DNA of 64,000 bases from an uncultured Gemmatimonadota bacterium (lineage in GTDB: Bacteria; JAAXHH01): assembly GCA_951812955.1 (NCBI GenBank), contig OX638340.1, forward strand, positions 2,720,001-2,784,000. Direction: 5' to 3'. The position numbers and the translations under genes were made by a program. This document shows positions 2,976 through 55,796 of this stretch, piece after piece; positions within the stretch are counted from its first letter, which is position 1; each line of letters begins with the position of its first letter. The notes under the pieces are model-generated. The model did no database searches and had not been told where the DNA came from. It worked only from the letters and a program-made list of their open reading frames with translations.

Positions 2976-3728
2976 ATGATCCTCGCCGCGGGACTGGGTA
3001 CCCGGTTGCGGCCCCTCACTGACACCCGGCCTAAAGCCCTCGTGCCGGTGGCCGGCAGACCCATGATTCACTGGGTGATCGCGCGACTCGCCAGTCACGG
3101 CTTCACGGACATCATCATCAATGCCCATCATTTCGCGGCGCAGATCGAGACCTTCGCGGCCGCGTACAAAGGTCCGGGCTCCCCACTGACTGTTTCCGTA
3201 GAGGAGGAGATCCTGGACACGGGCGGCGGGGTGCGGAAGGCCGCGTGGTTCTTCGACCGCGAGGAGCCGTTCCTGGTGCACAACGTGGACGTGCTGACCG
3301 ACCTGGATCTATCCGGCCTGATGAACGCTCACCTGGCTTCGGATGCCCATTCGGCCTATGGGGCCCTGGTCACCTTGGCCGTGAAGAGTAGAAAAAGTTC
3401 GCGTCACCTCCTGTTCGATGAGGCGGGACGGCTGGGCGGCTGGCGTTCGGACGTTACGGGAGAGACGCGCACGGTCCGGCCGATAGCGGGTCCCGTCACC
3501 CCCGTGCCCTTCATGGGCGTCTACGTCATGTCCCCTGCCGTGTTGAGAAAGATGGCCGATCCCGGTCCCTTTTCGATCATCGACTTCTTCCTGGACCAGG
3601 CAGGTGGCGGCGCGCCGATTCGGGCCTATCGGGCTGATGATGCCAGGTGGGCGGATCTCGGAAGCGAGGACCGCATCGCGGCGGCCGAGCGGCTCTTCGG
3701 TACGGACTGGTTCGCGGAGATCGGTTAA
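2976..3728 (+). CDS. murU: Sugar-phosphate nucleotidyltransferase, MurU-like (N-acetylmuramate 1-phosphate uridylyltransferase candidate).
   Basis: N-terminal MILAAGLGTRLRPLTDTRPKALVPVAGRPMIHW is the G-x-G-T-R-L nucleotidyltransferase signature. The ATG at 2976 follows the kinase stop (2968-2970) by 5 nt. Pairing with an APH-fold kinase matches the AmgK-MurU salvage arrangement. The symbol is by context and is tentative. Confidence 0.6.
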   Translation: MILAAGLGTRLRPLTDTRPKALVPVAGRPMIHWVIARLASHGFTDIIINAHHFAAQIETFAAAYKGPGSPLTVSVEEEILDTGGGVRKAAWFFDREEPFLVHNVDVLTDLDLSGLMNAHLASDAHSAYGALVTLAVKSRKSSRHLLFDEAGRLGGWRSDVTGETRTVRPIAGPVTPVPFMGVYVMSPAVLRKMADPGPFSIIDFFLDQAGGGAPIRAYRADDARWADLGSEDRIAAAERLFGTDWFAEIG

Positions 3729-4330
3729 TCCGTTCTCCAGACGAACACATACACGCAAAGGCCAGGCTTACCCGCCATCGGTCGAAATGACTTGAAGCGC
3801 AGCGCGCCAACGGTTATCTTGGTACCGTATCGATCTTCCTATAAACACGCCCTCACCCGAAGGAGGTTTGAATTGGCTGACGCATCGTCCTCCCGCGGCG
3901 CGAGGCAGTGTCTGCGTAGTCTGCTCTATCGCGGTTGTTGCCCCCGCCGAAGTTTTACTCCTACATAACCGGCGACAGCGGGCAAATACGCGGTGAAGAC
4001 GTTTCCTTCAGGATTCGCGCTCGTTGAGCGTCTCCGGTAATCCTCGCGGAACGGTTTCTCCTCCATTATGGCCCGGACGGTCATCTTGTTCGTACCGCCC
4101 GGGGCGATGGCAACTCGTGGATATACGGAATTCCCTGCCCGAAGCCAGGCGGGAATCCTGTCCTGTAGCAGCCTTTCTCCTGCCCCGCGCGGATCGTGCA
4201 TCTATTGATCCGAGCCACGACCCGTCGCTACACGATAGCGAGTCGAGCTGCGAGAAGCGTGCAGAGCGTGTTCAATTTTCAGTGCGCAGGATATCCGCGC
4301 CGGCTCTCCGAAATCAGTAAGGTAGGTACT

Positions 4331-5722
4331 ATGTCCGGCAGAATGAATGGAAGCCCCCCCAAATTCCAGATTTACGATCTCAGGAACTACAGAAAAATAC
4401 CCCAGATTGAGCATCTCCGGGACGAGCTGAAATTCGAAATGGAAGTCGTCGCGCAGGTTCTACCGTTCCGGACCAATTCCCACGTGGTGGAGAACCTGAT
4501 CCAATGGGAGAACATCCCCGACGACCCCATGTTCCAGCTCACTTTTCCGCAGCGGGAGATGCTGTCGCCGGACCACTTCGACGCGGTGGCTGCATTGGTG
4601 AAAAAGCAGGCGGGCAAAGCGGAAATGGCGCGCACGGTGAACCGGATCCGATGGGATCTGAATCCACAGCCCGCGGGCCAACTCGAGCACAATGTCCCCA
4701 GGGAGGACAACGAGAGACTGGATGGCATGCAGCACAAGTACCGGGAGACGGTACTGTTCTTTCCATCCCAGGGACAGACCTGCCACGCATACTGCACCTT
4801 CTGCTTCCGCTGGCCCCAGTTCGTGGGGATCGATGAGCTGAAGTTCGCCAGCCGCGAGGTCGAAAGTCTCATCAGATATCTTGAGGAAAATCCCCAGGTC
4901 ACCGACGTACTTTTCACGGGCGGCGATCCCATGGTCATGCGAGCAAAGAACCTTAGCGTGTATGTCGATGCGTTGCTGAAGGCGGACCTCCCCAATCTGC
5001 ACACGATCCGAATCGGGACGAAATCGCTGGCGTACTGGCCCTACAAGTACCTTACTGACCCGGACGCGGACGACGTGCTGGCGCTCTTCGAACGGGTAAT
5101 TCGCGCCGGTAAGCACCTGGCCATCATGGCCCATTGCAGCCATCCCGCCGAACTGCAACCCGACGCGGTGGCAAAAGCGGTCGGCCGGATCCGTGGTACG
5201 GGGGCAAGAGTTTACACGCAGTCTCCCATTCTGAGGCATATCAACGACGATCCGAACACCTGGGCCGCCATGTGGCGCAAGCAGGTGGACCTGGGGATGG
5301 TTCCCTATTACATGTTCGTGGTGCGAGACACCGGCGTGCAGCGCTTCTTCGCCGTGCCGCTGGTTCGCGCGTGGGAGATCTTCCAGAACGCCTATCAGCA
5401 GGTAAGTGGGATATGCCGGACCGTGCGCGGCCCCAGCATGTCGGCCCATCCCGGGAAGATCCATGTCCTGGGCGTCAGCGAGGTCCGCGGAGAGAAGATC
5501 ATCGCCCTGCAATTCCTGCAGGGACGCAATCCCGACTGGGTCCTGCGGCCGTTCTTCGCCCGGTACGACGAAAGAGCCATCTGGCTGGACGACCTCGAGC
5601 CGGCCTTTGGCGAGGAGTCGTTTTTCTTCGAAGAAGAGTTGGCGCAGTTGTGCGCTGAGGACCTGCCCTCCGGCCAGTGGGACGTGATGGAGTCCCTGGT
5701 GCTGGAAGGCGTGGAGTTTTAG
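4331..5722 (+). CDS. KamA-family radical SAM aminomutase (lysine 2,3-aminomutase-like).
   Basis: CHAYCTFCFRW is the CxxxCxxC radical SAM motif in the KamA-type context (GQTCHAYC...). TGGDPMVM matches the KamA family. The ATG at 4331 is preceded by aaggtagg. Upstream in-frame ORF sequence from 4196 looks non-coding. Confidence 0.75.
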   Translation: MSGRMNGSPPKFQIYDLRNYRKIPQIEHLRDELKFEMEVVAQVLPFRTNSHVVENLIQWENIPDDPMFQLTFPQREMLSPDHFDAVAALVKKQAGKAEMARTVNRIRWDLNPQPAGQLEHNVPREDNERLDGMQHKYRETVLFFPSQGQTCHAYCTFCFRWPQFVGIDELKFASREVESLIRYLEENPQVTDVLFTGGDPMVMRAKNLSVYVDALLKADLPNLHTIRIGTKSLAYWPYKYLTDPDADDVLALFERVIRAGKHLAIMAHCSHPAELQPDAVAKAVGRIRGTGARVYTQSPILRHINDDPNTWAAMWRKQVDLGMVPYYMFVVRDTGVQRFFAVPLVRAWEIFQNAYQQVSGICRTVRGPSMSAHPGKIHVLGVSEVRGEKIIALQFLQGRNPDWVLRPFFARYDERAIWLDDLEPAFGEESFFFEEELAQLCAEDLPSGQWDVMESLVLEGVEF

Positions 5723-20696: not shown

Positions 20697-21121
20697 ATCT
20701 ATGACGCGCTCTGCGCAAGACGTTTGGATCGCGTTACGTTCATATTGAAAAGAATAAGATAAGCGTCCGGGGTCTCCAGTCCAAGAGAATCGCATACGGG
20801 GATTAGACATCCAGCAAAGGAGTCAAGGCGCCACCCCGTTGGGGCCTGAAATTCACCTCAGAGGGAGACTACGATTGTTAATTGACAAACCGAATAATCC
20901 ATATTGGAATTAATCCATAAAATGATATATTTGGAAAATGAACCGAAGTCCGACATCATCCTGTCTTACGCTTGGAAAACAAAGCAATAACGGAATCCAT
21001 GTCACGCACCTTGATGGCGGATCTTCCACACCAGGTCCATGGCGTTCCGTTTCAGTCAAGACAGGGAAAGATGCTTTTATAGACAGGTACAGATGCTCTT
21101 TAACGAACTGAGGAGAGGCAA

Positions 21122-21844
21122 ATGGATGCACCGAGTGGAAGGCGCGAGACACGTTACGGGATACCAGAGGCTGATCAAGTGATATTCAATCGCCATTACA
21201 TTATTGGTTATTCCTACTATTTTCGCCAAGCCAAGTGGGCACTTGAAATTGTCGATCGTGATCATACCGGACTGGATCGGGCCGATAACTTCCGTCCCGA
21301 TTACCGCGTGCCGGAGATGTTTCGCGCAGACCTCGCAGATTACACGGGATCCGGTTATGATAGAGGGCATCTGGTGGCAAGCGCCAATCAAAGGGAAGTG
21401 GAATTGCAAAACAGCGAAACCTTCTTGCTTTCCAATATGTCTCCACAAGTTCCGCGTTTTAACCGCGGAGTGTGGAAGGAACTTGAAGGCGCGGTAAGAG
21501 CGTTGAATGAACAGGAAAAAATACTGGAGACCTACGTCATTTGCGGTCCTCTTTTTCACTTTGACAAGGCGACCGAATTGATCGGGGCCGAAGATGACAA
21601 CGGCGTCACGCTCCCCATTCCCCACGCATACTTCAAGTCCATCCTGACCGAAAACAACCGGGGAACGTTGGATTTCTGGTCTTTCATCCTGCCCAACGAA
21701 GATATTGATAGGCCGCTTAAATCATTTCTCGTTCCGACGAGAAAAATCGAACAATATGCGGGCATCTACATCTGGAACCGCCTGCAAGGCACGTCCATAG
21801 CACGAAAAAAGAGAGTACAGAAAAGACGTATGTGGAGATTCTAA
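21122..21844 (+). CDS. DNA/RNA non-specific endonuclease (NUC1/Serratia-nuclease family).
   Basis: DRGHLVASANQ is the catalytic DRGH motif and SNMSPQ is the N of the Mg-binding site. No signal peptide. The gene and its flanks are visibly lower in GC than the surroundings. Confidence 0.8.
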   Translation: MDAPSGRRETRYGIPEADQVIFNRHYIIGYSYYFRQAKWALEIVDRDHTGLDRADNFRPDYRVPEMFRADLADYTGSGYDRGHLVASANQREVELQNSETFLLSNMSPQVPRFNRGVWKELEGAVRALNEQEKILETYVICGPLFHFDKATELIGAEDDNGVTLPIPHAYFKSILTENNRGTLDFWSFILPNEDIDRPLKSFLVPTRKIEQYAGIYIWNRLQGTSIARKKRVQKRRMWRF

Positions 21845-21935
21845 GTCAGCATCGATGTTGAATCTTGCGAGGCTGTCTGTGCAATCTATTCATCGCTTAT
21901 TGCTTTTCGCCTCAAGCGATTCACCACACCCTCCG

Positions 21936-43376: not shown

Positions 43377-43612
43377 GATCGCTCAGGTATAGTGGCCGTC
43401 CGCGATACGATAGACCGCGATTCGGGGGTTGGGCTCGCCGTCCTCAACGGGCGCCATATCGACCCGTACATTTCGTCGTCGAGATCAGGCGGCGTGTCGC
43501 GTACCCACTCCAGGTTGGAATCCCGCGCGGTGGCGGGGTCGGAAGATACAACCAGAAGGGCGAAGATCATCACGGGGATAACGAGTTTCAACACGTTGTC
43601 TCCTCTCGTCAC
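43373..43612 (-). CDS. Possible small (79 aa) secreted/membrane protein between the MFP and RND genes.
   Basis: A GTG start overlaps the MFP stop (GTGA), and its stop overlaps the RND start (ATGA). N-terminal hydrophobic stretch VLKLVIPVMIFALLVV. It could equally be a chance ORF in high-GC DNA. Confidence 0.25.
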   Translation of the reverse strand: MTRGDNVLKLVIPVMIFALLVVSSDPATARDSNLEWVRDTPPDLDDEMYGSIWRPLRTASPTPESRSIVSRTATIPERS

Positions 43613-44820
43613 TCCATCATGCTCACGCTCACCGGGACGTCATGGGCCAGCGTGACGTTTCCGGTAACGGCCACTGTATCGCCTTCGGCGAGTCCGGAGG
43701 TGATTTCTCGCCAGTCGTCTGCCTCCCGGCCCAAGGCGACGTAGGTCCACTGGGCCCGTCCATCCCGTATTCGAAAGACCAGGGGGCGCTCGTCGCGGAC
43801 GACGATGGCGCCGGCGGGCACGGCCAACCGGTTCTCGTAGAGCGTACCCTCGATTCGGATCTCGGCGTACATGCCCGGTTTCAGCCGGCCGTCGGCGTTG
43901 GGCAGGTCGGCCTCAACGTAGCCCGTGCCCCTTTCCTCGTCCACAGCGGGGTAGATACGGGCGATGCGGCCTTCGAAGGATTCTTCCGGCCAGGCGACAA
44001 CCCGAATCCGTATGCCGCGGCCGATGTCGACTGCGCCTAAGTCGCTTTCCAACACGGCGGCCTTGACGCGGATACGGGACACATCCATGATCGTGAGGCA
44101 GGTTTCCCCGGCGGCGACCTGTTGACCTTCTTCGACGAGTCGTTCTGCGATGATGCCGGAATAGGGGGCGTTGATGGCGGTTTGTTCCAGGTCCAACACG
44201 GCGCGAGCATGAGCGATCTCCGCTCCGGTAAGGCCGGTATTCTGCGCGATGAGATCATACCTGTGATCCCCGGAGAGTAACTGCACGGCTTCGTAGTCTC
44301 TGCGGGCGGTCTGAAGCGCCGCCTGATCGATTTCCTCCCGCTCGATGGCAGCTTGCGCCTTGCGCCAGGCGTTTCTCTTGGTGTGTGTCCAGGTCGTATC
44401 GGGCGCCGTGACTTCGGTAGTGTCGGTGATGAATAGCGCGTACCTGTACCGGGCGTCCATGAGCGCCGAACGGGCTTCGTCCACCTGGATGCGGAACCGT
44501 TCTTCTTCCAGTCGTGCCAGGAGTTGGCCCTCATTGACAGTTTCGCCCTCGCGTACCAGGACGCTTTGGATTCTGCCGCCTACCCCCGCGCTCAGATCGG
44601 TCCGTCGTCCGGCCAGGAGACGACCGGAGGCCACGATCGTCCTCGTCAGCGTCCTTTGGGTTGCTACCGCGGCTTCCACGGGGAAGGGCTGCGGCTCGGT
44701 TTCCACCGGGACGGCACCCATAGGCTCGTTCGAAGTACCGGTCGGTTCGGGTCGCAGGAATATGACCGCCGCGACAATGGCGAGGATGACGATAATGAGG
44801 ATGGGAATGATCGTTTTCAT
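43609..44820 (-). CDS. RND efflux periplasmic adaptor (membrane fusion protein, HlyD family).
   Basis: Signal anchor (MKTIIPILIIVILAIVAAVIFL), a coiled-coil hairpin region and a C-terminal beta-barrel domain. Lies upstream of the two RND permeases. Confidence 0.85.
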   Translation of the reverse strand: MKTIIPILIIVILAIVAAVIFLRPEPTGTSNEPMGAVPVETEPQPFPVEAAVATQRTLTRTIVASGRLLAGRRTDLSAGVGGRIQSVLVREGETVNEGQLLARLEEERFRIQVDEARSALMDARYRYALFITDTTEVTAPDTTWTHTKRNAWRKAQAAIEREEIDQAALQTARRDYEAVQLLSGDHRYDLIAQNTGLTGAEIAHARAVLDLEQTAINAPYSGIIAERLVEEGQQVAAGETCLTIMDVSRIRVKAAVLESDLGAVDIGRGIRIRVVAWPEESFEGRIARIYPAVDEERGTGYVEADLPNADGRLKPGMYAEIRIEGTLYENRLAVPAGAIVVRDERPLVFRIRDGRAQWTYVALGREADDWREITSGLAEGDTVAVTGNVTLAHDVPVSVSMME

Positions 44821-44823
44821 GGA

Positions 44824-45273
44824 TTATCCTGAATGATTGGCATTCCCCATGAATATCATACGATGCTCGAGAATCAACTTCCGACGTATGGGTTTGCCGG
44901 GTGAATAGCTCAGATACCCCCCGAAGCCTCTTTCTCTTGCGTACACGTGCGCGACGGGTTGGAATTGTGCTCGATACACACTGTAATAGAACACCATTTG
45001 AATGGGACGGATCAGTCTGACCAACAAACTGGCCTTGATTGTGCGTCGAGGGAAATGTACGTCGCCGTCGTCATTGGTTGTCCTATCCTGGCTGCTATAG
45101 GTTTTTTCAAGGGCGAAGTGCCGCCAATACTGGTGTACGTCAACACCTTTCAGCGGGTAACCGTCCCTGTCGAACACAGTAACGCTCCAGGCAGGTACTA
45201 CGGTGGACTCTACAGGATAGCCTATTACAACTGCTGTGACAAGAATGATCACTGTCACAAAGTATTTGCGCAT
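44824..45273 (-). CDS. Hypothetical membrane-anchored/secreted protein.
   Basis: MRKYFVTVIILVTAVVIGYP signal anchor. Overlaps the upstream MauE-like gene by 19 nt. First gene of a lower-GC segment. Confidence 0.4.
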   Translation of the reverse strand: MRKYFVTVIILVTAVVIGYPVESTVVPAWSVTVFDRDGYPLKGVDVHQYWRHFALEKTYSSQDRTTNDDGDVHFPRRTIKASLLVRLIRPIQMVFYYSVYRAQFQPVAHVYARERGFGGYLSYSPGKPIRRKLILEHRMIFMGNANHSG

Positions 45274-45731
45274 TTAAACGCCTCCCTTATTGAAAATGGA
45301 ACGTGACGCGCGTAGACAAGACTTGAAGCGGCCGCCAATATGAACGTATTCCGAACCAGCACTTCGGCAATGGAGACGTTTCTTAAGTCATCGCCTAATC
45401 CGAAACAACCGCACGGCAGGTCTGCCCCGTAATACAGCCCCCAGGCCAGCGCGCCCATAAAGGACAACATCAGCAGCACAACGATCATCGCGCTATATCG
45501 GATCCATACCCCAATCACGAGACATAAACCGGTTGAGATTTCGATCCAGGGCAACGCAAGGGCGAAAGGGACTGCCAGCGGCTCGGGTACAATGTCATAC
45601 GACCGCACGATCTGCGCGAAGAGTTCGAGCTCCGGCATCTTGGCCAACCCTGCCCAGATAAAGATACCCCCTACCACTAAACGCAGCGCCAGGAGACCGA
45701 AGGGAACTATACGATCGTGTCCGCTTGCCAT
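45255..45731 (-). CDS. MauE/DoxX-like polytopic membrane protein with a CGCFG motif.
   Basis: Four hydrophobic helices. LPCGCFGLGD resembles the conserved Cys pair of the MauE (methylamine utilisation)/DoxX-like families. Confidence 0.5.
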   Translation of the reverse strand: MASGHDRIVPFGLLALRLVVGGIFIWAGLAKMPELELFAQIVRSYDIVPEPLAVPFALALPWIEISTGLCLVIGVWIRYSAMIVVLLMLSFMGALAWGLYYGADLPCGCFGLGDDLRNVSIAEVLVRNTFILAAASSLVYARHVPFSIREAFKCANTL

Positions 45732-45755
45732 GATTCATTTACCCCCGATGCATTT

Positions 45756-46844
45756 CTACAATGTGTCGAGAGGTTGCCTGAGCGTGTATGTCACTACGGC
45801 GGGATTGGATGACTCGTCGGCGGGTTCCACCAACATGTACAGACGATCTTCCCGTGTGAAGAGCGCGTCCGGACCTCCCATGAAATCCGGCATCTGGAGA
45901 CTGCTCGCGATCTGGTTCAGATCGGCATCGTACAGATCCATGAAGACGCGGGACCCTTGCGGGTCGGCGAATACTGCGCCCAGCCACCGATCGCCGATTC
46001 TAAGGAGTTGATAGAACTGGCTCCATGAACGCATATACTCCTGCCGTTTCCGCATGTCGTCCAGGACCATCGCGTCGGGCGGGTCCCGCGGAGGCACGTA
46101 GAAGGGCGATCGACCCTGCGCGGTTTTCACGAGTTCGCCATCGGGCGTGTATTTCCTCACGGTATATTCGTACGGGGTCGCGACGTAGAGAAACCGCCCG
46201 ACCGATACAATCCCTCCACCCCGTGAAGCCGCGGCGACATTGTAGTTCTCGGACTGAGGGGCGAATTCATTGAGCGTATCGCCCTGATCGTTCAATTCGT
46301 GCACCACGTGAATTGCGCCGCTGGTATTCACGTATCCGAAAACCCGACCCTCGGCAGTTACGTGTATATCTTCCAATCGCGGCGAAGGCGAGAAGCTGTT
46401 CCTGAAAACATAGTCGTTCCCGTAGATTGAAATGCGTGACAGCGTCATGTCGTAAAGTAAAAAAACTCCATCTCGCGTAGCCGCCAATGCAAGGGGATAG
46501 CGATACTCGCCGGGACCATCGCCCGGAGCGCCGAGGTGTTTTTTGCCTCGTCCCTTCCCATCGAATACGTCGACGCGAGTGGTAACGAAGTCCAGCACGA
46601 TGCAATCACCGTTGGACGCCACGGCGCCGATCTTGGGCAAAGGACCGAGCAGGAACTCATCGCTCGAATCGAGATTGATCCTCGATTCCACCCGGTAGAC
46701 ATCGTCGAATGTCAACGGTCGCTCCTGGCTCGCGCATGCCAACGGTCCGCACAGTCCGCATAGTATGAACAGCGCAATGGCAGAACGCGAAGCGGGACAC
46801 CATCTTGTAACGGGTGTAAAGGAACTGAGGTTTTTCGTGCTCAC
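45756..46844 (-). CDS. Beta-propeller (NHL/6-bladed-type) lipoprotein, paralog 1.
   Basis: Signal plus lipobox (LCGLCGPLACAS). Repeating beta-strand blocks. 35-40 percent identical by eye to 47566..48717 (e.g. GGGIVSVGRFLYVATPYEYTVRKYTPDGELVKT versus GGGILLLGSHLYVITPYEYELRKYDLGGKLIRT). Confidence 0.6.
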   Translation of the reverse strand: MSTKNLSSFTPVTRWCPASRSAIALFILCGLCGPLACASQERPLTFDDVYRVESRINLDSSDEFLLGPLPKIGAVASNGDCIVLDFVTTRVDVFDGKGRGKKHLGAPGDGPGEYRYPLALAATRDGVFLLYDMTLSRISIYGNDYVFRNSFSPSPRLEDIHVTAEGRVFGYVNTSGAIHVVHELNDQGDTLNEFAPQSENYNVAAASRGGGIVSVGRFLYVATPYEYTVRKYTPDGELVKTAQGRSPFYVPPRDPPDAMVLDDMRKRQEYMRSWSQFYQLLRIGDRWLGAVFADPQGSRVFMDLYDADLNQIASSLQMPDFMGGPDALFTREDRLYMLVEPADESSNPAVVTYTLRQPLDTL

Positions 46845-46889
46845 GGTGCGTATCCTTTCTATGTCGCGTTGTGCTTCGCCGTCGTGGAA

Positions 46890-47531
46890 TCAACCTTGTG
46901 CCGCGATGGTATTGATGTAGACGCCAAGCTTCTCATAGAAAGTGACGGTTCCCTGTTCGTCCTGATAATCCGAGTAATTCGCCAGTAGAACTCGATTGTC
47001 ACGTCCCAGAAACACGATCAAGGGGTATCTGTTGTAATCGAACCTCTTTAACAGATGTGATTCGGCGTCCATTACGGCAACGTCTTGAATCCGGTATTGT
47101 TTCAGATGAGAGAGAAAATGGGTCTCTTGAAAATCGGAAAAAACCATAATGGCGTCTATGTTTCTTTCCCTCAAGCGACTACGATACTCGTTGAACAACC
47201 GAAGCTCCATGTCCAGACAGCGGTTGCAGTTCGTTCCCGCAAAATGGTAGATCAGCTTATAACCGCCCGTATCCGAAAACAGGTCTCTGAACCTGGTGTT
47301 GGCGCGCTGCAATCGAGCTAGATCCGGTCCCAGACCAGCGCCTTCAAGCGCATGTTCATGGATGGTCAATTGTTCGCCTATGCTCATGGTCACCTTGTTC
47401 TTCCACGTGCCGTTTTCGGCGGTTAACTCCGATACTCTTTGGAACAGCACGATATTCAATGTGAGCAAGGAAACAATTCCGGCTAAAAGCCATTTTCGAG
47501 GTATGTCGAGACTAACCGCATTCGATGACAT
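46890..47531 (-). CDS. Membrane-anchored thioredoxin-fold protein with a CNRC (CxxC) motif (TlpA/MauD-like).
   Basis: N-terminal TM (LLAGIVSLLTLNIVLF) followed by a thioredoxin-like beta-alpha-beta core around HFAGTNCNRC. Confidence 0.5.
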   Translation of the reverse strand: MSSNAVSLDIPRKWLLAGIVSLLTLNIVLFQRVSELTAENGTWKNKVTMSIGEQLTIHEHALEGAGLGPDLARLQRANTRFRDLFSDTGGYKLIYHFAGTNCNRCLDMELRLFNEYRSRLRERNIDAIMVFSDFQETHFLSHLKQYRIQDVAVMDAESHLLKRFDYNRYPLIVFLGRDNRVLLANYSDYQDEQGTVTFYEKLGVYINTIAAQG

Positions 47532-47565
47532 GCGGACACCTCCTACGGGCTTTACTGTAATACGC

Positions 47566-48717
47566 TTAACCCGATGATTTGAGTTCGTAGACGACTACAG
47601 TTGGATTGGGCAGATTCTTAACGTCCTGCGACAACACGACGGGTGCTTCTGAACGCAGCAGATAGAGTCGGTCACCCCTGGAGACGATCCCCTGCGAACC
47701 ACCGCCAATGTGCTCGGGCAATTGCAGGTCGCCGGTAACGTAATTGAGATCTGTGTCGTAGAGATCCAAAAACACGCGACGCTCATTTGGTTCGGCCAGG
47801 ACCACTCCTATCATCTCGTCTCCTATCTTCAACAGTTGTCTTATGTGGCTCCACGTGGCGTGGTACGCTTGTCGTTTGCGGAGATCGCTCGAAATTTCGT
47901 GCTCATCAAAGTCTGTCGAAGGCGGCACATAGTGCGACGATCTGCCCCGTACCGTTCGAATCAGTTTTCCACCAAGATCGTACTTCCGAAGTTCGTACTC
48001 ATAGGGGGTGATTACATAAAGGTGTGAACCAAGCAGCAAGATACCTCCCCCTCTGGATTCTCCCACGGTACTGAACTCCTCGTATTGATCGGCGAAACTG
48101 TTCTTGATCTCTCCTGACCTAGTGCACTCGTAGACTACCCTATCGGCCCCCTTCCTGCTAGCGACACCACTCGTATAGCAAAAGAAGCGATCGTCGGCTG
48201 TCACGATAATCTGACCCAGGAAAAGAGGAAGATCGACACTGCTGTTGAACGTAAAATCTTCGCTGTACTCCTGGATTCGCAGAAGATCTCCATCGTATAC
48301 GTAGTACCTGTGTGTTTGATCGCTATAGTAAAGGTTATCGGGGTAGAGGTATTGGTCCGCATTCGTCCCAAGACTTCCAATCTTCGCCTTGCTTCCGCCC
48401 TTGGAGTCGAATACAAGTATCTGTCGAACCCCGAAGTTATCCAACACAATGAAATCGCCCTGTTCGTTTATCGCGCTGAACCAGGGCAAAGCGCTCAGCG
48501 TGAAGCCCGAATCATTGGCAAGCGGGATCTGACGTATTTCTGTATACACTTCCAAGAAAGACTGTTTATCTCCATAGGAATCGGCGAGATGAGCAATGGA
48601 TGTATTGCGGGCTTCTTCCATCGAACCATGAGTACTCTGACACGCCATTGCTCCCATGAAAAACACCATTAGCGAAAAGGACAGCAACCGTAGCGTTTCA
48701 TTCGTTCGCTCTGACAT
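47566..48717 (-). CDS. Beta-propeller (NHL/6-bladed-type) lipoprotein, paralog 2.
   Basis: RBS aggaggg before the ATG. Signal plus lipobox (FFMGAMACQS). Paralogous to 45756..46844. Confidence 0.6.
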   Translation of the reverse strand: MSERTNETLRLLSFSLMVFFMGAMACQSTHGSMEEARNTSIAHLADSYGDKQSFLEVYTEIRQIPLANDSGFTLSALPWFSAINEQGDFIVLDNFGVRQILVFDSKGGSKAKIGSLGTNADQYLYPDNLYYSDQTHRYYVYDGDLLRIQEYSEDFTFNSSVDLPLFLGQIIVTADDRFFCYTSGVASRKGADRVVYECTRSGEIKNSFADQYEEFSTVGESRGGGILLLGSHLYVITPYEYELRKYDLGGKLIRTVRGRSSHYVPPSTDFDEHEISSDLRKRQAYHATWSHIRQLLKIGDEMIGVVLAEPNERRVFLDLYDTDLNYVTGDLQLPEHIGGGSQGIVSRGDRLYLLRSEAPVVLSQDVKNLPNPTVVVYELKSSG

Positions 48718-49170
48718 GGTTGGATTCCCTCCTCATTAGCTTGCCTTTAACAGTACAACCGGAAAGTGCTCGCTTCTTAAGTTGACGCTTATCGTGAATC
48801 GAACCACCACAATCCTATCGGTCAGGCTTGACTACGCTCAAGGCCAGGTATGAGCGCTAAATGGAGAACAATGATGAGATGTCGAGGGCTGGCAGTGGTA
48901 CACGTTATTTGCTACATGTACCCAATTGTATACTTGATTGGCTCCTGCCGGCTCCGTGGACAACGCCAGCATGCTCATTGCGCCGGCCATCGTCAATGCA
49001 CCGACGAACATTACACGAGTGAAGATGCTTCTGATTGAAGTTTTGATGACCGTGCTCCTTTCATTGTGCCTTTCCGGTTGTACTGTGCAATGAATAAAAT
49101 GACACCTGACCGATAGTCATCAACAGATACATATTGGAAGTGGAAACGGCTGGATATTTAGGGTAAAACC

Positions 49171-49692
49171 CTACACCTCCATAATCTCCACCAGTTCGTC
49201 TTCAGGATACGGGAAATGCCCCTGGGTACCCCGGTTGACCCGGGCCATGCGCTCCCCGAACACCATGTCTTCTCTGATCAATTCCGAAGTCCTGTGAATG
49301 CACTCCAACGTTGGGATTCCTCCTGTCGCGATCGCTGCTTCGGCTTCCTCCAGAAGAGCCGTCATGTCGTAAAACATCTTGATATTCGGCGACAGCATCT
49401 TGCGAGCCTGTTCCGGCAGTGAGGCGCGTAACTCCAGACAGAGATCGAGGGCTTTCAGAAGATGTTCCCTCGCGATTCGAAAGCACTTCCGTGCTTTACT
49501 CAGTGAAGCGCGATACGGCAGGATATTTCCCGCCAGGCAGGCGCCCAGATCTTCTATTTCCTCCAGGGCGCCAAGTCCCATGAAATAGTGGCCCCATCCC
49601 GTAAGTGTGAGCGGATAGATCCGGTGTTCGAAGGCTTCTTTGAGCTCCACATTGTCTGGCATCGGCGGAAGTGGGCAGGTCCAATCAGACAT
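49171..49692 (-). CDS. Hypothetical cytoplasmic protein (173 aa).
   Basis: Protein-like composition. Co-directional with the regulator genes. No recognisable motif. Confidence 0.4.
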   Translation of the reverse strand: MSDWTCPLPPMPDNVELKEAFEHRIYPLTLTGWGHYFMGLGALEEIEDLGACLAGNILPYRASLSKARKCFRIAREHLLKALDLCLELRASLPEQARKMLSPNIKMFYDMTALLEEAEAAIATGGIPTLECIHRTSELIREDMVFGERMARVNRGTQGHFPYPEDELVEIMEV

Positions 49693-49790
49693 TGTAGGCC
49701 TCCTTCAGTACATCAATTGGTGAAGAGACTCGCGGAGATGGAACACTGGAACGATCTACCCATTAAAGAAAGGAAAGCCGGACCGGTTAT

Positions 49791-49809
49791 CTATAGGGTG
49801 TATCCCTAT
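49791..49809. promoter_or_regulatory. Palindromic box ATAGGGTGTATCCCTAT (candidate LuxR/NarL-family operator), copy 1.
   Basis: Inverted-repeat arms ATAGGG/CCCTAT, about 100 bp upstream of the 49692 start codon. Confidence 0.35.
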
Positions 49810-49890
49810 TTGCTCGTTTTTTTTCACCGGAATCGAAAAAACCTGATTCCGGTCTTGAAGGAGTAGAGCGTCTCCTTTAAACGAACGTGT

Positions 49891-50526
49891 TCATTCTTCC
49901 ATTTTGATCAGACCAAGTTTGATCGCCGCTCGGATCAGATCGGGAAGGCTGTGCGTGTCTAGTTTCGCCATCAGATTTATGCGATGATTCTGCACGGTTT
50001 TTATACTGATTCGCATGGTTTCGGCTATCTGGCGATTGGATCGCCCCGATACGATCAGTCGAAGGATTTCGCGCTCACGGGGAGTAAGCCGGGGCGGTGT
50101 GCCATGGGGGTACTCCTCATACAGGTAATCGGCATGATCCATGGCCCGGGATTGGTACGTAACGCCCCTGCAAACGGTGCGTATCGCTTTGACCAACTCT
50201 TCGCCCGCTGATTTCTTGAGCACGTAGCCCCTGGCGCCGTTGTCCAGCGCTTTCCGGATCAGTGCGGGATCGGAATGCATCGACAGCATGACCACCCGGA
50301 CCTCGGAAAACGACGCGCGAATCCGCCTCGTCGCTTCGATACCGTTGATACCGGGCATCTCGACGTCCATCACTATGACGTCCGTTCGGACTCGATGCAC
50401 GGCATCGATCGCCTCCCGGCCATCCACGGCCTCGGCGACTATTCGAATATCGGACTCTTTTTCGAGCAGGTCCCGCAGCCCCTGCCGAATCAGATGATGA
50501 TCGTCTGCAATCACTACGCGTATCAT
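49891..50526 (-). CDS. LuxR/NarL-family response regulator (REC + HTH).
   Basis: Starts MIRVVIADDH. Phospho-acceptor context VIVMDVEMPG. The C-terminal HTH LTPREREILRLIVSGRSNRQIAETMRISIKTVQNHR is present. Confidence 0.85.
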   Translation of the reverse strand: MIRVVIADDHHLIRQGLRDLLEKESDIRIVAEAVDGREAIDAVHRVRTDVIVMDVEMPGINGIEATRRIRASFSEVRVVMLSMHSDPALIRKALDNGARGYVLKKSAGEELVKAIRTVCRGVTYQSRAMDHADYLYEEYPHGTPPRLTPREREILRLIVSGRSNRQIAETMRISIKTVQNHRINLMAKLDTHSLPDLIRAAIKLGLIKMEE

Positions 50527-50610
50527 ATGATGTTCGCGATCTCCTCTTCTGGTCGTTACATGACGAAATCCGTCGTTTGCTCAATACTAACAACAAAAAG
50601 GGGGACTATC

Positions 50611-50630
50611 CATAGGGTGTTTCCCTATGT
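50611..50630. promoter_or_regulatory. Palindromic box CATAGGGTGTTTCCCTATG (candidate LuxR/NarL-family operator), copy 2.
   Basis: Same ATAGGG-N5-CCCTAT architecture as copy 1, about 90 bp upstream of the response-regulator start at 50526. Confidence 0.35.
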
Positions 50631-50722
50631 TCCGCTTTTTCTTACGGTATTGGGGGGCTGAAGTGGCGAGAGAGATAGACTGCGGCCAACCGGATTGCTA
50701 CCAAGCGGGGAAAGACGACGGT

Positions 50723-51376
50723 TCATTCATCCAGGAAAGCGAGACGGTGCTTGAGGGCCAGGAGTATGAGATCCGGCAGATTGTGGACTTTCAACTTCTT
50801 CATCAGGATCGCGCGGTGTTTTTCCACGGTCTTGTCGCTGATGTTCAGGACCTCCGCCGCGGCCTGATTGGTATGTCCCTCGACGATGAGCTGAAGTATC
50901 TCCCGTTCGCGGGATGAAAGCTGCTCCAGAACGGCCTTTGACTCATTCGCCGATTCCGTCTGCAGGAATCCCGATAGCACGGTTTGAGCAATCGAAGGTG
51001 AAAGATAGATTTCGCCCTTGTTGGCGGACCGGATGGCGATCAGGAGTTCCTCCACGACGGATCTCTTGAGGAGATACCCGCTGGCCCCGCATCTGAGCGC
51101 CTGGCGCACCACGTCCTCATCCGAATGCATGGATAGTATGACGACGCGGGTATCGACGGACAGCGTCTGAATCCGCCGCGTGGTCTCGATACCGTTCAGC
51201 AAAGGCATGGCGATATCCAACATGGCGACGTCCGGTCTCTTCCGTTGTACCAGGTTCAGGGTCTCGTGACCATCGGCCGCTTCGCCGACAACTTCCATAT
51301 CCTCGGCCTTTTCGATTAGAGACACGATGCTTTGACGGACCAGTTGGTGATCGTCGGCAATAACGATCCTGATCAT
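50723..51376 (-). CDS. LuxR/NarL-family response regulator (REC + HTH), second copy.
   Basis: Starts MIRIVIADDH. Contains VAMLDIAMPL and the HTH SSREREILQLIVEGHTNQAAAEVLNISDKTVEKHR. Its start overlaps the kinase stop (ATGA). Confidence 0.85.
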   Translation of the reverse strand: MIRIVIADDHQLVRQSIVSLIEKAEDMEVVGEAADGHETLNLVQRKRPDVAMLDIAMPLLNGIETTRRIQTLSVDTRVVILSMHSDEDVVRQALRCGASGYLLKRSVVEELLIAIRSANKGEIYLSPSIAQTVLSGFLQTESANESKAVLEQLSSREREILQLIVEGHTNQAAAEVLNISDKTVEKHRAILMKKLKVHNLPDLILLALKHRLAFLDE

Positions 51377-54087
51377 TTCTCCTCCAAAGGAATTGTAGCG
51401 ACCAGACGGGCTCCCGCGCCTGGTTTCGAGTAAACATTCATGCGGCCATTCAGCGATTCAAGGCGTTCCTGCATATCTATCAAACCGATTCCTGTTTCAT
51501 TCTGATCCGAAAGTGTATCTGCAAGATCAAAACCCTGGCCGTTATCCTGTATCGATAGTTGTACGACTTCGCCATTGCGTTTCAAGCTAACTTCCACATG
51601 AGAGGCTTGTCCGTGTTTGACGCAGTTCGTCAGCCCTTCCTGCAGTATACGATACAGGCAGATATCGATTGGATTGGAGATTTCCGTAGTATCCATGCCA
51701 ACGTATGAGACCGGCATTTGAGTTCGTTGTGTTAAACTCTTGCATAGTCCTTCCAATGCTGTATTCAGCCCGACTGTATCCAGTGTCGGGGGACGGAGAT
51801 TATGGGAGATCGCACGTAGTTTCTCCAGCGTCTCGTCGGTTAGCGCCACGGCGTCGCTCAGCCGTTCTGCCGTATGATCGGAGACCCCGGACAACTCGTT
51901 CCGGGTTATTTCAAGGCTCATCTTCAGCGCCGTGAGCGCTTGTCCCGTATCGTCATGGAGATCCCGCGCCAGCCGGCTTCTTTCCGATTCCTGAATGTCG
52001 ATGAGTCGTCTGGAGAGTCTCTTCAATCCCAGGGCCTGATGCCGTAGCGATGTTGCCATATCGAGGTTCTTCAACGCCAATTCCAATTCGGCCGACAGGA
52101 CCAGCAACTGTTCTTTTTCATCGCTGTTGAACGGTTCTTCGCTGAGTTTTGCACCCAGTGCAATACATCCTTGACGGTCAGATCCTTGTCCGAGTACGAC
52201 CATGAGTTCGCACCCGGTGTCTCTCATACTTTCATTTGCGTACAGTTCGCGATACTCGACCAACGATTGCTCGGGGGGTATCGATCGCAGAAGGCCTTCG
52301 ACCTTGCCGGCTGCTTCAGTGAAGAACGTTTCATTTCTCTTGAGATCCTGCTCCGGCTTCTCACGCACTGCGTACCATCGGACCGAAAGCGATTCCTGAG
52401 GACTTTCTGCAAGGTATATCGCCAGATAGCAAACGTCCAATCCCTCCAGCAACTCTTGCCCGGTGGCGCTCAAAAGCGCATTACGATCCTGGTATTGCGT
52501 TAAGGATTGCTCGAGTCTGAAAAGGCGTTGTCGGTTTTCATATTCATCACGCAAAAGATATTGATTCAGTAAGCGGATGACGGGCGTCTTCACCCAGGTC
52601 CACCCTCCGACGAGTATCAAGGTGAATCCAGCGGCAGCGCTGGCGATCAGAAGATCGGAGGTTTCCATACCGGTCGGCCACACGGATATCAGTTCAAATA
52701 GTGCGATTAACGTCCAGAAGCTGAATATGAGATATATGCTCTTGGCATTGGCCAGGTAACGCAGACCACTTCCGAAGACGAACTTCAGGCCGAACACTCG
52801 GTGTGCCAGAATGGTATAGACAAAGGCGAGCGGCAGTCCACACTGCAGTACTACGTGGATGATCCGATCGAAGAGCCAGACTAATACCGGCAGGGCGGCC
52901 CCCCTTATTGGAATCAGGTCCCAACTGGCCAGAAGTGTACCAGGTTGCGTAATAGTCCACACGGGAGCCAAAATGAGGGCCGAGATGAATCCTGCCTTGA
53001 TGATATGCAGTCGCGTGCGTTGCTGATGCCGCGCGACGGAACGTTGGGCTATCATAAGACATCCCGCGGCGATGACAACGAGGGTGGGCAGCGCGGGAAC
53101 GGGCACTGGTTCAACGATTTCCGTGATGATACCAACTCCTGCGTGGTCCCACCCATAGGTCAGACTCAGCAAATAGATCAGACGGCACGATAGCCAGACA
53201 ATCAGGGGCGTCAGGATGAACCACCGGTTTTTGAGCAGCCATGATCCGAAAGCCGTCGCACTGGGGAAGACGGCAAGAATCCGAAACATGAGAACGATTT
53301 CCAGTAAGGATGCCGCGACGATGGCGAATATGCTGAGGAACAGTACCCAGTCCGGCCATCCGGCTATCATGGGATGGAAAGCGGGCGAGGAGGAAAGCGC
53401 CATAGCGAGGAAGAGCAACGCGCATCGAAAGGCAAGGGGACTGTGCGGACTCCTGAACCCCATCCAGGTTCCGAAGACCAGCAGGACCATCGGTAAAATC
53501 AGATACGGCCCCCGTTGGAACCACGTCATCGCGCCTACGCCCAGTACGAGTTCCTCCTGATTGACCTCGACTGCGTATCGTACCTGTTCCGTGGCCTCAA
53601 GCGTGAGTATACCAGCGTGCATGCTGCCGTCGCGAAGCCAGGCAAGATTGAAACGTTCACCGGGCTTGCTCCGCAAACGCGCCTGGAAATAGGCTTCGGG
53701 ACGTGTCCCGAGATCCGTGCCATCAATAGAGATCACCAGGTCACCCGGTCGCAATCCGGCTTTGTCCGCAGGGCTGTCCGCGTCTACTTGCGTGACGGTA
53801 ATACCGCCGTCCTCGCGTATGCGAACGAGGTGGAACCACGTGCCCTCCTGCAGATTGCTCACCGCACTTTTCGTGAGTCCCTTCGTCTGTATCATTTCAT
53901 TTCCGAAGAACTGGATACCCGGTGACCAGTGCTCGATTTGCGTGAACCGTACCAGCGTCCACGTGACCAGTCCTAAATGCATACACGTGAACATGACCAG
54001 TGCGCTGAGTGCGACGTATCGGCGGATGAGTGTCTTCAACCGAGAGCTACTCAATTGCGAGGGAATTGTATTTGAAGAGTCATTCAT
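51373..54087 (-). CDS. Sensor histidine kinase: N-terminal PDZ domain, multi-TM region, HisKA_3 (NarX-type) dimerisation domain and HATPase_c.
   Basis: PDZ segment VTQVDADSPADKAGLRPGDLVISIDG. About 8 hydrophobic helices. H-box ERSRLARDLHDDTGQAL. N/G boxes (LQEGLTNCVKH, DNGQGF...GIGLIDMQER). ORF track starts at a TTG (54159); the ATG is at 54085-54087. Confidence 0.8.
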   Translation of the reverse strand: MNDSSNTIPSQLSSSRLKTLIRRYVALSALVMFTCMHLGLVTWTLVRFTQIEHWSPGIQFFGNEMIQTKGLTKSAVSNLQEGTWFHLVRIREDGGITVTQVDADSPADKAGLRPGDLVISIDGTDLGTRPEAYFQARLRSKPGERFNLAWLRDGSMHAGILTLEATEQVRYAVEVNQEELVLGVGAMTWFQRGPYLILPMVLLVFGTWMGFRSPHSPLAFRCALLFLAMALSSSPAFHPMIAGWPDWVLFLSIFAIVAASLLEIVLMFRILAVFPSATAFGSWLLKNRWFILTPLIVWLSCRLIYLLSLTYGWDHAGVGIITEIVEPVPVPALPTLVVIAAGCLMIAQRSVARHQQRTRLHIIKAGFISALILAPVWTITQPGTLLASWDLIPIRGAALPVLVWLFDRIIHVVLQCGLPLAFVYTILAHRVFGLKFVFGSGLRYLANAKSIYLIFSFWTLIALFELISVWPTGMETSDLLIASAAAGFTLILVGGWTWVKTPVIRLLNQYLLRDEYENRQRLFRLEQSLTQYQDRNALLSATGQELLEGLDVCYLAIYLAESPQESLSVRWYAVREKPEQDLKRNETFFTEAAGKVEGLLRSIPPEQSLVEYRELYANESMRDTGCELMVVLGQGSDRQGCIALGAKLSEEPFNSDEKEQLLVLSAELELALKNLDMATSLRHQALGLKRLSRRLIDIQESERSRLARDLHDDTGQALTALKMSLEITRNELSGVSDHTAERLSDAVALTDETLEKLRAISHNLRPPTLDTVGLNTALEGLCKSLTQRTQMPVSYVGMDTTEISNPIDICLYRILQEGLTNCVKHGQASHVEVSLKRNGEVVQLSIQDNGQGFDLADTLSDQNETGIGLIDMQERLESLNGRMNVYSKPGAGARLVATIPLEEK

Positions 54088-54307
54088 GTCAACATACAGA
54101 TTGCTTTTCGAGAAGCATCCTGAAGCAATTTCGGAAAACAGGTGGACTTGACTCAACAAGCAAGTTTACTCGATCCAGGCCCGATACACCACCGGCGGTT
54201 TTCCCCGATCTCTGTACGACGACATGACCGCTTACATACAGCGGCCGGAACAGTGGCGTCACGTTCATGGGGTCGGTACGAGGTCGGGGCATGTCAGGGA
54301 AGGGATA

Positions 54308-54703
54308 TTAGCCGTCCGGTTCGGCGACATAGGTGTAGAGGATCGTTCCATCCCGGTCAAGCTGGAAGACCTCGTACCGCTTGGAGGGCGAGTATAGAAT
54401 ACGGCCATCAGGTGTTTGCGACAGATGGTTAAAGTTGGTTCGCACAGGTATGGTTGGTTTGCCGCCTATCACGAACTTACCGATTCCGTAACGAAGATTA
54501 CCGCCCATTTCGTAAACGGCGAAAATCGGTTCGTCCCATACGGAATTCACGGCGATCTCTCCGTCGTTCCCGGCCAGGATTCCGCTGGGAGGCAACAGAT
54601 TCTCGATGCGAAAATCCGAGAGGTGCGCGCCGTTCATCGTAAAGACCGTAATACGATTGTTTCCCGAGTCAAGAACAATGACTTTCTCATTGGATATGGC
54701 CAC
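54308..54703 (-). pseudogene. Truncated NHL-type beta-propeller gene fragment (decayed paralog).
   Basis: The 131-aa ORF has NHL-like blocks (VIVLDSGNNRITVF). Its upstream continuation (DADGRFFLADDRHHTIWVVESSG) is in a different frame at 54760-54840, so it is frameshifted. Confidence 0.5.
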
Positions 54704-54889
54704 ACCTAGAGGTCGATTCAGCTCTCCGGGACCAGACCTCCCATACTATTCCGATGAGAAACCGCCCCTGATGATTCGACCACCCAGATCGTGTGATGCC
54801 GGTCGTCAGCCAGAAAGAAACGGCCATCCGCGTCCATGTTTTCATGATGTCTGTGACCGATAGTATCTGGGCATTGGGCGGATAGTTAA

Positions 54890-55566
54890 GCTTGCCGTAA
54901 CCTGGGGCAATCGGCCTCGTAAGTCGCGATGACGGTACCGTCCCACTTCATTCTGAATACGGGGTATTCCTTGACCGCAGAATATAGAATATGACCCTCA
55001 GGCGTCTGGTTGAAATGCTGATCGCCCTGGTCCTATCCAACAGTCTGGTCTGGCACTCTTTCACCTCGGCTTCCTACAACGCTACCACACAAATCGTAGA
55101 CCGTAAAAAGTGTTTGCCCCCAGAGAGAATTGACCGCGATCTGGCCGTTCTTGCTCGCCAGTATTCCGGATGTCATTTGAAATTCCAACCGGAAGTCGTC
55201 TAAATACATACCATCCATCTTGAATATCATTACCCGGCTATTGCCGGAATCGTTCACGATGACTTTGTTTTCAAATACAGCTGCTCCTCCTGGACGCAGC
55301 AGTTCACCGGGGCCGGCCCCGTCCCGGCCAATGCGGCTGATCAGTTTGCCCTCTGAGTCACAAATCCAGACTGTATTCTGCTGCCCGTCCGTCAGGTAAA
55401 ACCGGCCGTCGTTGTCCCGTATCAGGTCTCCGATTTTTCCAGCAATCTCATCTTCAAGATCCAGCGGAATTGCACTGACTTTCTCGACTGCGAATGGCTG
55501 GGCATTTGCGGAACCCAAAAGTAACCACCATGATACAGGTTGATACAACCATGATAAGAACGGCAA
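54890..55566 (-). pseudogene. Second decayed NHL-type beta-propeller gene (frameshifted near 55033).
   Basis: The 177-aa ORF 55033..55566 (signal-like N-terminus, VIVNDSGNSRVMIF) stops where its paralog continues. The matching C-terminal peptide (TPEGHILYSAVKEYPVFRMKWDGTVIATY) is encoded in another frame at 54900-55030. Confidence 0.5.
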
Positions 55567-55592
55567 AGTCGTTTACGCCTTTCTTCAAGAAT

Positions 55593-55796
55593 TCACGTGT
55601 AAGGCGCCTCATTCCCACAACCGTACCCGGACCGGCACGTGTGGGCCAGTGTAGTGTTGCCGGTGTCGGCCACCGTGTCGCCCTCGCTGATCCCTGAGGT
55701 CACTTCCCGCCAATTGTCGCCTTCCTTACCCAGGTTGACGTACGTCCACTGGGCCCTTCCACTACGAATTGAAGTAAGAATACCCGGGAATCCCAC
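55593..55796 (-). pseudogene. Remnant of the 3' end of a second RND membrane-fusion-protein gene.
   Basis: The 67-aa ORF IRSGRAQWTYVNLGKEGDNWREVTSGISEGDTVADTGNTTLAH aligns with the C-terminus of the MFP at 43609..44820 (IRDGRAQWTYVALGREADDWREITSGLAEGDTVAVTGNVTLAH). DNA is about 80 percent identical over the aligned part. No upstream MFP body. Confidence 0.55.

Follow-up and report, generated by a model that had tools for sequence, protein, structure and literature searches.

A small exported two-cysteine peptide linked to a thioredoxin-fold protein and NHL propellers in a low-GC island of an uncultured Gemmatimonadota bacterium

In the window, a stretch of 64,000 nucleotides from contig OX638340.1 of an uncultured Gemmatimonadota bacterium, an island of minus-strand genes encodes two beta-propeller lipoproteins, a membrane-anchored thioredoxin (Trx)-fold protein and a MauE-like membrane protein. 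What do these proteins act upon, and which of them belong together? A sequence-only reading of the region had suggested an extracytoplasmic redox or maturation module, without naming a peptide client. Its extracytoplasmic location and its tie to thiol-disulfide chemistry are upheld here, and a co-encoded peptide with two Cys residues is the probable client. The core of the island is proposed to be a rare four-gene extracytoplasmic cassette that makes a Sec-exported peptide and three envelope proteins handling that peptide, as a split NHLRC2/SOQ1-like machine. The probability of this reading is put at roughly 45%, somewhat short of even.

The peptide gene (Table 1) has 69 codons when read from an ATC at 49047 and 57 codons from an ATG at 49011. 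Relatives that are 92% identical have ATG in place of the ATC first codon (49045-49047, minus strand), and the ribosome binding site, AAAGGAG, is intact 7 nt upstream of 49047. In the window genome, the peptide may have to be expressed from this rare start codon or from the ATG that lies inside the gene at 49011. A start at the latter would remove the basic n-region of the signal. The signal is of Sec type, ending ...EPAGA, and the predicted mature peptide is NQVYNWVHVANNVYHCQPSTSHHCSPFSAHTWP, which has five His residues and ends in W-P. Gene callers annotate the gene as 69 aa in three related contigs (locus handles L001-3), and its dN/dS against L001, over 69 codons, is 0.12.

More than 20 loci have a homologous open reading frame (ORF) immediately 5' of propeller A. 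About 22 distinct peptide sequences were seen overall, 16 of which were aligned. The aligned sequences begin with a basic N-terminus, which leads into a hydrophobic stretch of ~20 residues and then a cleavage site of AxA type; xPP often comes next. The core of 30-36 residues carries the motif [WYF]HC-x7-8-C-x-[PT]-x-S-x3-[WY], with 0-4 residues after it. The H, both C and the S of the motif are invariant in 16/16 sequences. The aromatic positions lie beside Cys1 and close to the C-terminus, and the residue before Cys2 is variable (H, G, N, S or C). The low dN/dS, the ~22 distinct sequences with an invariant H-C...C...S and the AxA-type cleavage site together support this as a real gene. No family in Pfam or NCBIfam matches the peptide, even at E values up to 10, and PF14055 is also unmatched. 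In a collection of 5.8 billion sequences the family forms 13 clusters, none with a functional name and three labelled 'hypothetical protein'. The small size of the gene has led to its being overlooked by gene callers and first-pass readers.

Related loci were gathered through homologues of propeller A and of the peptide, and were annotated with purpose-built profiles. The propeller A alignment search returned 7 genome loci and 14 metagenome loci; the Trx alignment is too poorly conserved for a locus search. There are 37 related loci in all, many of them near-duplicates, and ~13 independent lineages underlie the co-occurrence reported here. The order peptide, propeller A, transmembrane (TM)-anchored Trx protein, propeller B recurs across these lineages. 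The Trx gene is present in 31 of the 37 loci as well as in the window. Of those 31, 27 also carry the peptide gene; in undisturbed arrangements it lies immediately 5' of propeller A. The four Trx loci lacking the peptide are a decayed copy (L020) and a variant lineage (L005, L016 and L024). In the variant lineage (for example at L024 7025-9582) both propellers and Trx are retained and no peptide gene is detectable; its propeller A is N-terminally truncated and without an anchor. Strict co-conservation of the propellers with the Trx-fold protein is seen across genomes, the outcome of a check that the sequence-only reading had proposed. Tandem arrays of four to six DUF5128 propellers of ~330 aa, lying between MFP and RND genes in L008 (12399-18701) and L009 (12421-16588), are also of low GC and have neither a Trx gene nor a peptide gene.

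The peptide and propeller A also diverge together. Comparison of the window with L004 gives identities of 67% for the peptide and 76% for propeller A, against 84-93% for the neighbouring genes. The dN is 0.22 for the peptide and 0.16 for propeller A, and dS is at least 0.8 for both, against ~0.3 in the neighbours. This suggests, from the sequences, that the pair has been exchanged by allelic replacement or is evolving as a unit. Some loci have two different peptide genes (L017 4649-4873 and 7561-7785; L022 139-429 and 458-676). Upstream of the cassette in Saccharicenans-type loci (L006 7978-9278, also L007 and L018) there are two further ORFs, one for a third propeller and one for a secreted product of 83 aa that has six Cys and may be a second kind of small client.

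The CNRC protein belongs to the TlpA/ResA/DsbE type by its AlphaFold2 model (pLDDT 92), in which a TM helix tethers a TlpA/DsbE-type Trx fold with the CxxC at the start of helix 1. Among its nearest structural matches are the Trx domains of NHLRC2 and SOQ1, in which Trx and NHL domains are known to be fused. Its scores for Pfam families fall below the gathering thresholds (Thioredoxin_8 20.4 bits against 27; Redoxin 14.5 against 26.6), and the NCBIfam scan found only ResA PRK03147 (E 1.7e-3, 18.3 bits against a cut-off of 170) and no MauD model. A word-indexed search recovers only close relatives, so the family was collected by exhaustive phmmer; with 40 clusters in a set of 1.84 billion representatives, it forms a small family of its own. 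The active site is C[NDR][RN]C or CxxS. The first Cys is near-invariant, the second is S, A, T or N in many members, and two representatives have neither.

Both propellers belong to the six-bladed NHL/PF17170 class, with scores above the gathering threshold and a six-bladed fold, and they are paralogues with 40% identity. Propeller A has a helical insert and an N-terminal anchor, and is probably a lipoprotein. Propeller B retains the TPYEY motif of propeller A, but its H..WSHI motif is missing both His. The second propeller of most other lineages belongs to a shorter subtype that has diverged further. A Cys pair is common in the propeller A family, with C180 in 21 and C198 in 16 of 27 sequences. 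The Trx protein and MauE might thus be dedicated to the disulfides of the propellers, in the style of DsbL/DsbI, the small ORF being incidental or minor. There is precedent for this in a private Dsb pair serving a single periplasmic beta-propeller enzyme, the arylsulfate sulfotransferase (ASST) of E. coli (Grimshaw 2008, cited in PMC6067686). However, the Cys residues of propeller A are missing in 6 to 11 of the 27 homologues, propeller B has no conserved pair, the peptide co-occurs with Trx, and the Trx-less arrays are also peptide-less. The Cys pair of propeller A was rejected as the redox client for its lack of conservation. Because the Cys pair of the peptide is invariant and that of propeller A is not, the peptide is the likely thiol client, and a system for folding the propellers is considered improbable.

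Propeller A has invariant polar residues at D142, E197, TPYEY237-241, Y263, S290 and D318, and H286 and H291 are nearly invariant. This cluster hints at catalysis beyond binding. It is possible to imagine a new extracytoplasmic class of ribosomal peptides, in which one or both propellers act enzymatically on the HC...C...S...W core through the D/E/Y/H/S cluster of propeller A. The propellers might install a Cys-aromatic cross-link or a quinone-type cofactor while the Trx protein steers the thiols, and the product might be a peptide cofactor, a small subunit or a natural product outside the known classes of peptides made on ribosomes and modified after translation (RiPPs). As in RiPP loci, a short precursor gene with a conserved core adjoins conserved partner genes. 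Pfam and NCBIfam scans found none of the known RiPP enzymes (radical SAM, MNIO, YcaO, LanM) in the cassette, nor an RRE. A new peptide class of this kind is thought to be distinctly unlikely.

The same invariant D, E, Y, H and S residues, with the invariant aromatics by Cys1 and near the C-terminus of the peptide, would also suit the logic of methylamine dehydrogenase, under which the peptide would be a precursor that matures into a propeller enzyme's small subunit, bearing a cross-link or a cofactor. The gene order mauB-mauE-mauD-mauA offers a parallel, with a propeller, MauE, a Trx-like protein and a small exported protein containing Cys and Trp. Among the island proteins there is, however, no homologue of MauA, of the seven-bladed MauB, of MauD or of MauG; MauE is missing from most cassettes, and no enzyme is encoded that would generate an oxidant for building a cofactor. 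It is improbable that the peptide is such a precursor.

The split NHLRC2/SOQ1-like architecture is preferred because the peptide, Trx and propeller genes are strictly linked, and because both models have among their structural neighbours NHLRC2 and SOQ1, the only Trx+NHL proteins studied in depth. The absence of the peptide from the Trx-less arrays and the co-divergence of the peptide with propeller A also favour it. The contacts and chemistry in the following scheme are drawn from gene linkage, folds, motifs and selection, which are the observed part of the evidence. After export and signal cleavage, the ~33-residue peptide would bind to the top face of propeller A, its cognate partner, with the active-site Cys of the Trx protein facing it as in the Trx/NHL cleft of NHLRC2 and SOQ1. 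This Cys would then form or isomerise the C-x7-8-C disulfide loop of the peptide. In the window lineage the adjacent MauE, through its CGCFG motif, would re-oxidise the Trx protein, as has been proposed for MauE and MauD; in lineages without MauE, the general system of the host would do so. Propeller B may serve as a non-identical partner, for instance as a holder or as one half of a heterodimer. Control of the operon in the window sublineage would fall to the PDZ-kinase and the two NarL-type regulators. The looped peptide could end as a ligand or small subunit of the propeller, a signal, an antagonistic peptide or a metal binder.

Several observations weigh against this machine. The second Cys of the Trx motif is often replaced and two representatives lack both, therefore simple DsbA-like oxidation cannot be the universal chemistry of the family. 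TlpA/ResA-type proteins are usually reductants, and this, with the CxxS variants, means that the thiol chemistry could run in either direction. MauE is missing from most cassettes. The invariant polar cluster of propeller A suggests more than binding, and with its ATC start codon the peptide may be expressed at a reduced level in the window genome.

The His residues of the peptide bring metals into consideration. TlpA keeps thiols reduced for the metallation of ScoI/CoxB, and the Trx fold here is TlpA/ResA/Sco-like. The motif H-C...(H)C, with its first His invariant and a His often before Cys2, could bind Cu or Zn while the TlpA-like protein keeps the thiols reduced, in association with MFP/RND efflux. 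The cassette and the propeller arrays do lie within an MFP-RND locus in the window lineage, and Sec-exported Cys peptides encoded with a DoxX gene are the copper buffers known as bufferins (PMC11626156). However, the second His is not conserved, and outside the window lineage the cassette is not linked to RND or MFP genes. There is no MNIO/DUF692 or other enzyme that builds metal sites, and MauE is an oxidant, which favours a disulfide over free thiolates. A metal-handling role is accordingly held to be quite improbable.

It is likely that the cassette moves. Its hosts include the window lineage, whose closest named relative is a Gemmatimonadota metagenome-assembled genome (MAG), together with Candidatus Aminicenantes/Saccharicenans, other Acidobacteriota and one MAG labelled Nitrospirota. 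In hosts of 40% or 62% GC alike the cassette is 10-15 GC points below its flanks, with the exception of L019, a high-GC locus where the dip is a few points at most. Transposases, a serine recombinase or toxin-antitoxin genes often adjoin it. The low GC relative to the host, the mobile-element neighbours and the patchy distribution across phyla support horizontal spread, and the cassette is probably horizontally mobile. The housekeeping genes PhoH-YbeY-CorC are close neighbours of the cassette in two hosts, the window lineage (beyond 57300, from L001 1-2767) and Candidatus Saccharicenans (L006 6-5983). This could be a coincidence or a common insertion hotspot.

Mobility of this kind, coupled with the fast divergence of the peptide and propeller A pair and the presence of two peptide genes in some loci, would also be expected of a spreading competition module. 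The peptide would then be a Sec-dependent antagonistic, bacteriocin-like peptide with a private disulfide catalyst, and the propellers would be immunity or binding proteins. In the sublancin operon, sunA-bdbA-bdbB, thiol-disulfide oxidoreductases are encoded with the peptide, and BdbB is needed for its two disulfides (PMC6391423). However, neither cationic nor amphipathic character is seen in the mature peptides, which are neutral to acidic. Genes for outer-membrane export or processing are missing from the core cassette, as is a small membrane immunity protein, and neither PADLOC nor the other family libraries had a match. An antagonistic role is regarded as unlikely, and the split machine acting on the peptide is retained as the preferred interpretation.

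MauE itself is genuine, but it is not part of the core. The island protein matches PF07291 over nearly the whole profile and has C107-G-C109-F-G after its third hydrophobic segment, between predicted TM3 and TM4. By eye the protein has K31 and E64, candidates for the conserved Lys of TM1 and Glu of TM2 close to the quinone site, and the protein of L023 also has a K and an E. In E. coli, MauE proteins can stand in for DsbB provided that both CXC Cys are intact, and the signature of the family is CXC-FG (preprint 10.64898/2026.03.05.709764). By analogy, the window MauE is a probable quinone-linked disulfide generator, a DsbB analogue. Its resemblance to HvfX/DoxX is weak (2.4e-5; 24.6 bits against a cut-off of 80). 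Just two lineages have MauE next to the cassette, the window lineage and L023, where the order differs, and MauE was rejected as a core component on this basis. The sequence-only reading had placed it inside the module and had seen in it and the Trx protein a mirror of the MauD/MauE pair; the MauE half of that parallel stands, while the Trx protein is not MauD, since no NCBIfam MauD match was found. The arrangement in L023 is MauE, propeller, peptide, propeller A. Its neighbours, at 121-1071 (-) and 3561-4659 (+), are an ORF with SPASM-like Cys motifs, radical-SAM-like by eye, and an AraC-type regulator. The gene for the 149-aa protein and that for MauE overlap by 19 nt, start on stop, a sign of translational coupling. 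The 149-aa protein has a dN/dS of 0.17-0.21, its gene is found only in the window lineage, and nothing meaningful was found for it in Pfam or NCBIfam at E values up to 10.

The dedicated two-component control suggested earlier has become a sublineage addition. The kinase has TM1, a PDZ domain predicted to be periplasmic, ~9 TM segments, a cytoplasmic linker and HisKA_3 and HATPase_c domains. By their domains the three proteins are of the NarX/NarL class, no equivalog cut-off being reached. The kinase is present in L001-3 and missing from L004 and L008. The kinase, both regulators and the 173-aa gene (dN/dS 0.12) are confined to the window sublineage and are all absent from L004, which has the cassette and MauE and retains the genes from the peptide through to the MFP. 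It is inferred that the kinase and regulators were added later in one sublineage. That the PDZ domain reads the C-terminus of the peptide is speculation; this idea was weakened by the W-P end of the window peptide, untypical of a PDZ ligand, and by the confinement of the kinase to one sublineage.

The features of the island and its borders are collected in Table 1.

Table 1. Coordinates of the genes, pseudogenes and relics in and around the low-GC island.
Feature	Position	Strand	Details
Intact MFP gene	43609-44820		3' end forms direct repeat with the relic
149-aa exported/anchored protein	44824-45273	(-)	Weak DUF6795 match only, 1e-3
MauE/DoxX-family membrane protein	45255-45731	(-)	PF07291 93.6 bits (cut-off 27), E 1.6e-26, profile positions 5-127/128
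Propeller B	45756-46844	(-)	PF17170 37.6 bits; lipobox PLAC
CNRC Trx-fold protein	46890-47531	(-)	TM helix 15-33, long helix, TlpA/DsbE-like domain with C102-N-R-C105
Propeller A	47566-48717	(-)	PF17170 30.8 bits (cut-off 22.9)
Peptide gene	48838-49047	(-)	Directly upstream of propeller A, in 450-nt gap
Diverged peptide/propeller A pair	47566-49047 in window; 9687-11152 in L004		dS contrast with neighbouring genes
173-aa cytoplasmic protein	49171-49692	(-)	No family in Pfam, NCBIfam or PADLOC
NarL/FixJ-class response regulator	49891-50526	(-)	REC and GerE helix-turn-helix
Second NarL/FixJ-class response regulator	50723-51376	(-)	REC and GerE; 47% identical to first
Sensor kinase	51373-54087	(-)	PDZ_6 5.6e-13, HisKA_3 8e-15, HATPase_c 3e-14
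Frameshifted propeller pseudogene	54188-54837	(-)	~330-aa NHL/DUF5128 type, split over two frames (blastx)
Truncated propeller gene	54904-55566	(-)	~330-aa type; PF17170 7e-13, NHL 1.4e-5
MFP 3'-end relic	55593-55796	(-)	MFP C-terminus, 70% aa identity over 47 residues

The island genes, 44824-54087, are all on the minus strand, and the ORF map contains every ORF that the sequence-only reading had listed from 54087 to 44824, in that order and at matching coordinates. Its inventory was complete except for the peptide gene at 48838-49047(-) and two propeller pseudogenes at 54188-55566. The families it had assigned all agree with the Pfam and NCBIfam scans and the AlphaFold2 model of the CNRC protein. 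The paralogous propeller lipoproteins score above the PF17170 cut-off, and the membrane-anchored Trx fold, for which profile matches are only sub-threshold, is supported by the model. The lower GC it had noted is seen in both measures. Island genes have a GC of 0.48-0.57, compared with 0.58-0.64 in flanking genes, and at third codon positions (GC3) 0.55-0.71, compared with 0.74-0.86 in the MFP, RND, sulfatase and next downstream genes. The acquisition or rearrangement it proposed fits an island that is compositionally foreign and in a rearranged spot. All of the island genes are under purifying selection relative to the closest relative, with dN/dS of 0.12-0.39. An Rfam scan of 43-58 kb gave zero matches, there is no obvious attenuator 3' of the peptide gene, and PADLOC defence models gave zero matches to seven island proteins. 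Promoter and terminator counts were no higher than the shuffled expectation, thus operon boundaries could not be drawn.

The position of the island between an intact MFP gene and an MFP remnant, as had been described, is borne out by the relic and by a direct repeat of 129 nt with 73% identity (43643-43771 and 55642-55770). Between the kinase gene and the relic are the remains of two more propellers. The frameshifted pseudogene has 37-54% identity to array members of L008 and L004 by blastx, and 83% over a piece of 29 residues; the truncated gene retains an ORF of 177 aa (55033-55566). The window keeps what looks like a relic of an older layout of MFP, propeller array and RND that is intact in L008 and L009. 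Elsewhere in the window there is a second low-GC patch (0.51; 20800-21900). It holds an ORF at 21122-21844 (+) with DRGH and SNMSPQ, motifs that are typical of DNA/RNA non-specific endonucleases.

How does the cassette compare with what has been described? The statement of the sequence-only reading that no characterised system matches still stands after searches of Pfam, NCBIfam, PADLOC and the literature. The superfamily of each component is already known, as is the principle of a private thiol-disulfide system for one client. Apparently without prior description in Pfam, NCBIfam, PADLOC and the searchable literature are the peptide family, the Trx subfamily and their fixed tie to NHL/DUF5128 propellers. 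Searches of the literature found nothing on DUF5128, PF17170, NVEALA or BF3164, and no paper that ties NHL repeats to RiPPs. The interest of the locus is thus an unannotated peptide family locked to a small Trx family and to NHL propellers.

In Bacteroides, DUF5128/DUF4221 genes are accompanied by NVEALA-type small proteins. The exported six-bladed propellers of that group (PDB 4raa, BF0058; 3s9j, BVU_1028) have 12-13% identity to those of the cassette. In the mau cluster, as in the window, a MauE protein (here CGCFG) has as its neighbours a redoxin-fold CxxC protein anchored in the membrane and a small exported protein containing Cys. However, the heavy subunit of methylamine dehydrogenase is seven-bladed and the cassette propellers are six-bladed NHL proteins, and there is no orthologue of MauA, MauB, MauD or MauG. 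The peptide has no MauA match, the propellers are not of MauB type and the redoxin is not MauD, thus the island does not belong with the mau maturation clusters. The sublancin and ASST operons likewise place a single client beside its own Trx-fold protein, joined by a membrane disulfide generator, as in the window lineage. Their BdbB and DsbI are of the DsbB type, whereas the generator here is MauE, and the cassette has a Sec-exported client, propellers and no ABC or peptidase exporter. MauE, a proposed general DsbB analogue, may have been recruited here to a dedicated client.

Bufferins resemble the cassette in combining a Sec signal with a Cys peptide, which is rare, and in being encoded by a dedicated operon where a membrane protein of the DoxX/MauE superfamily may be present. 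They differ in that the cassette is without MNIO or DUF2063, its peptide is unrelated to DUF2282 and its candidate partners are all extracytoplasmic; neither MNIO (DUF692) nor DUF2063 had a match among ten island proteins scanned. Should the peptide prove to be modified by the propellers, peptide maturation would have a further Sec-dependent route besides the bufferins, one located in the periplasm.

The closest likeness is to NHLRC2, an essential human protein mutated in FINCA disease, and to SOQ1. These share the Trx and NHL propeller folds with the cassette proteins, a resemblance that is structural only, from the models; profile searches detect no similarity in sequence. Their motif is CC(I/V)NC, compared with C[NDR][RN]C or CxxS in the cassette (CNRC in the window), and they are one fused chain, whereas the cassette has separate genes, two propellers and a co-encoded peptide. 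Bacterial NHLRC2 homologues have no conserved neighbours in seven genomes examined (PMC6107167). In NHLRC2 the Trx active site faces the cup of the propeller, and a conserved cleft is proposed to bind a ligand or partner (PMC6107167). The lumenal Trx-like domain of SOQ1 is redox active and works with the neighbouring domains on a protein client (10.1101/2024.11.01.621559). The client of this architecture has been hard to pin down for NHLRC2, and the peptide described here offers a candidate client for the combination of Trx and NHL propeller.

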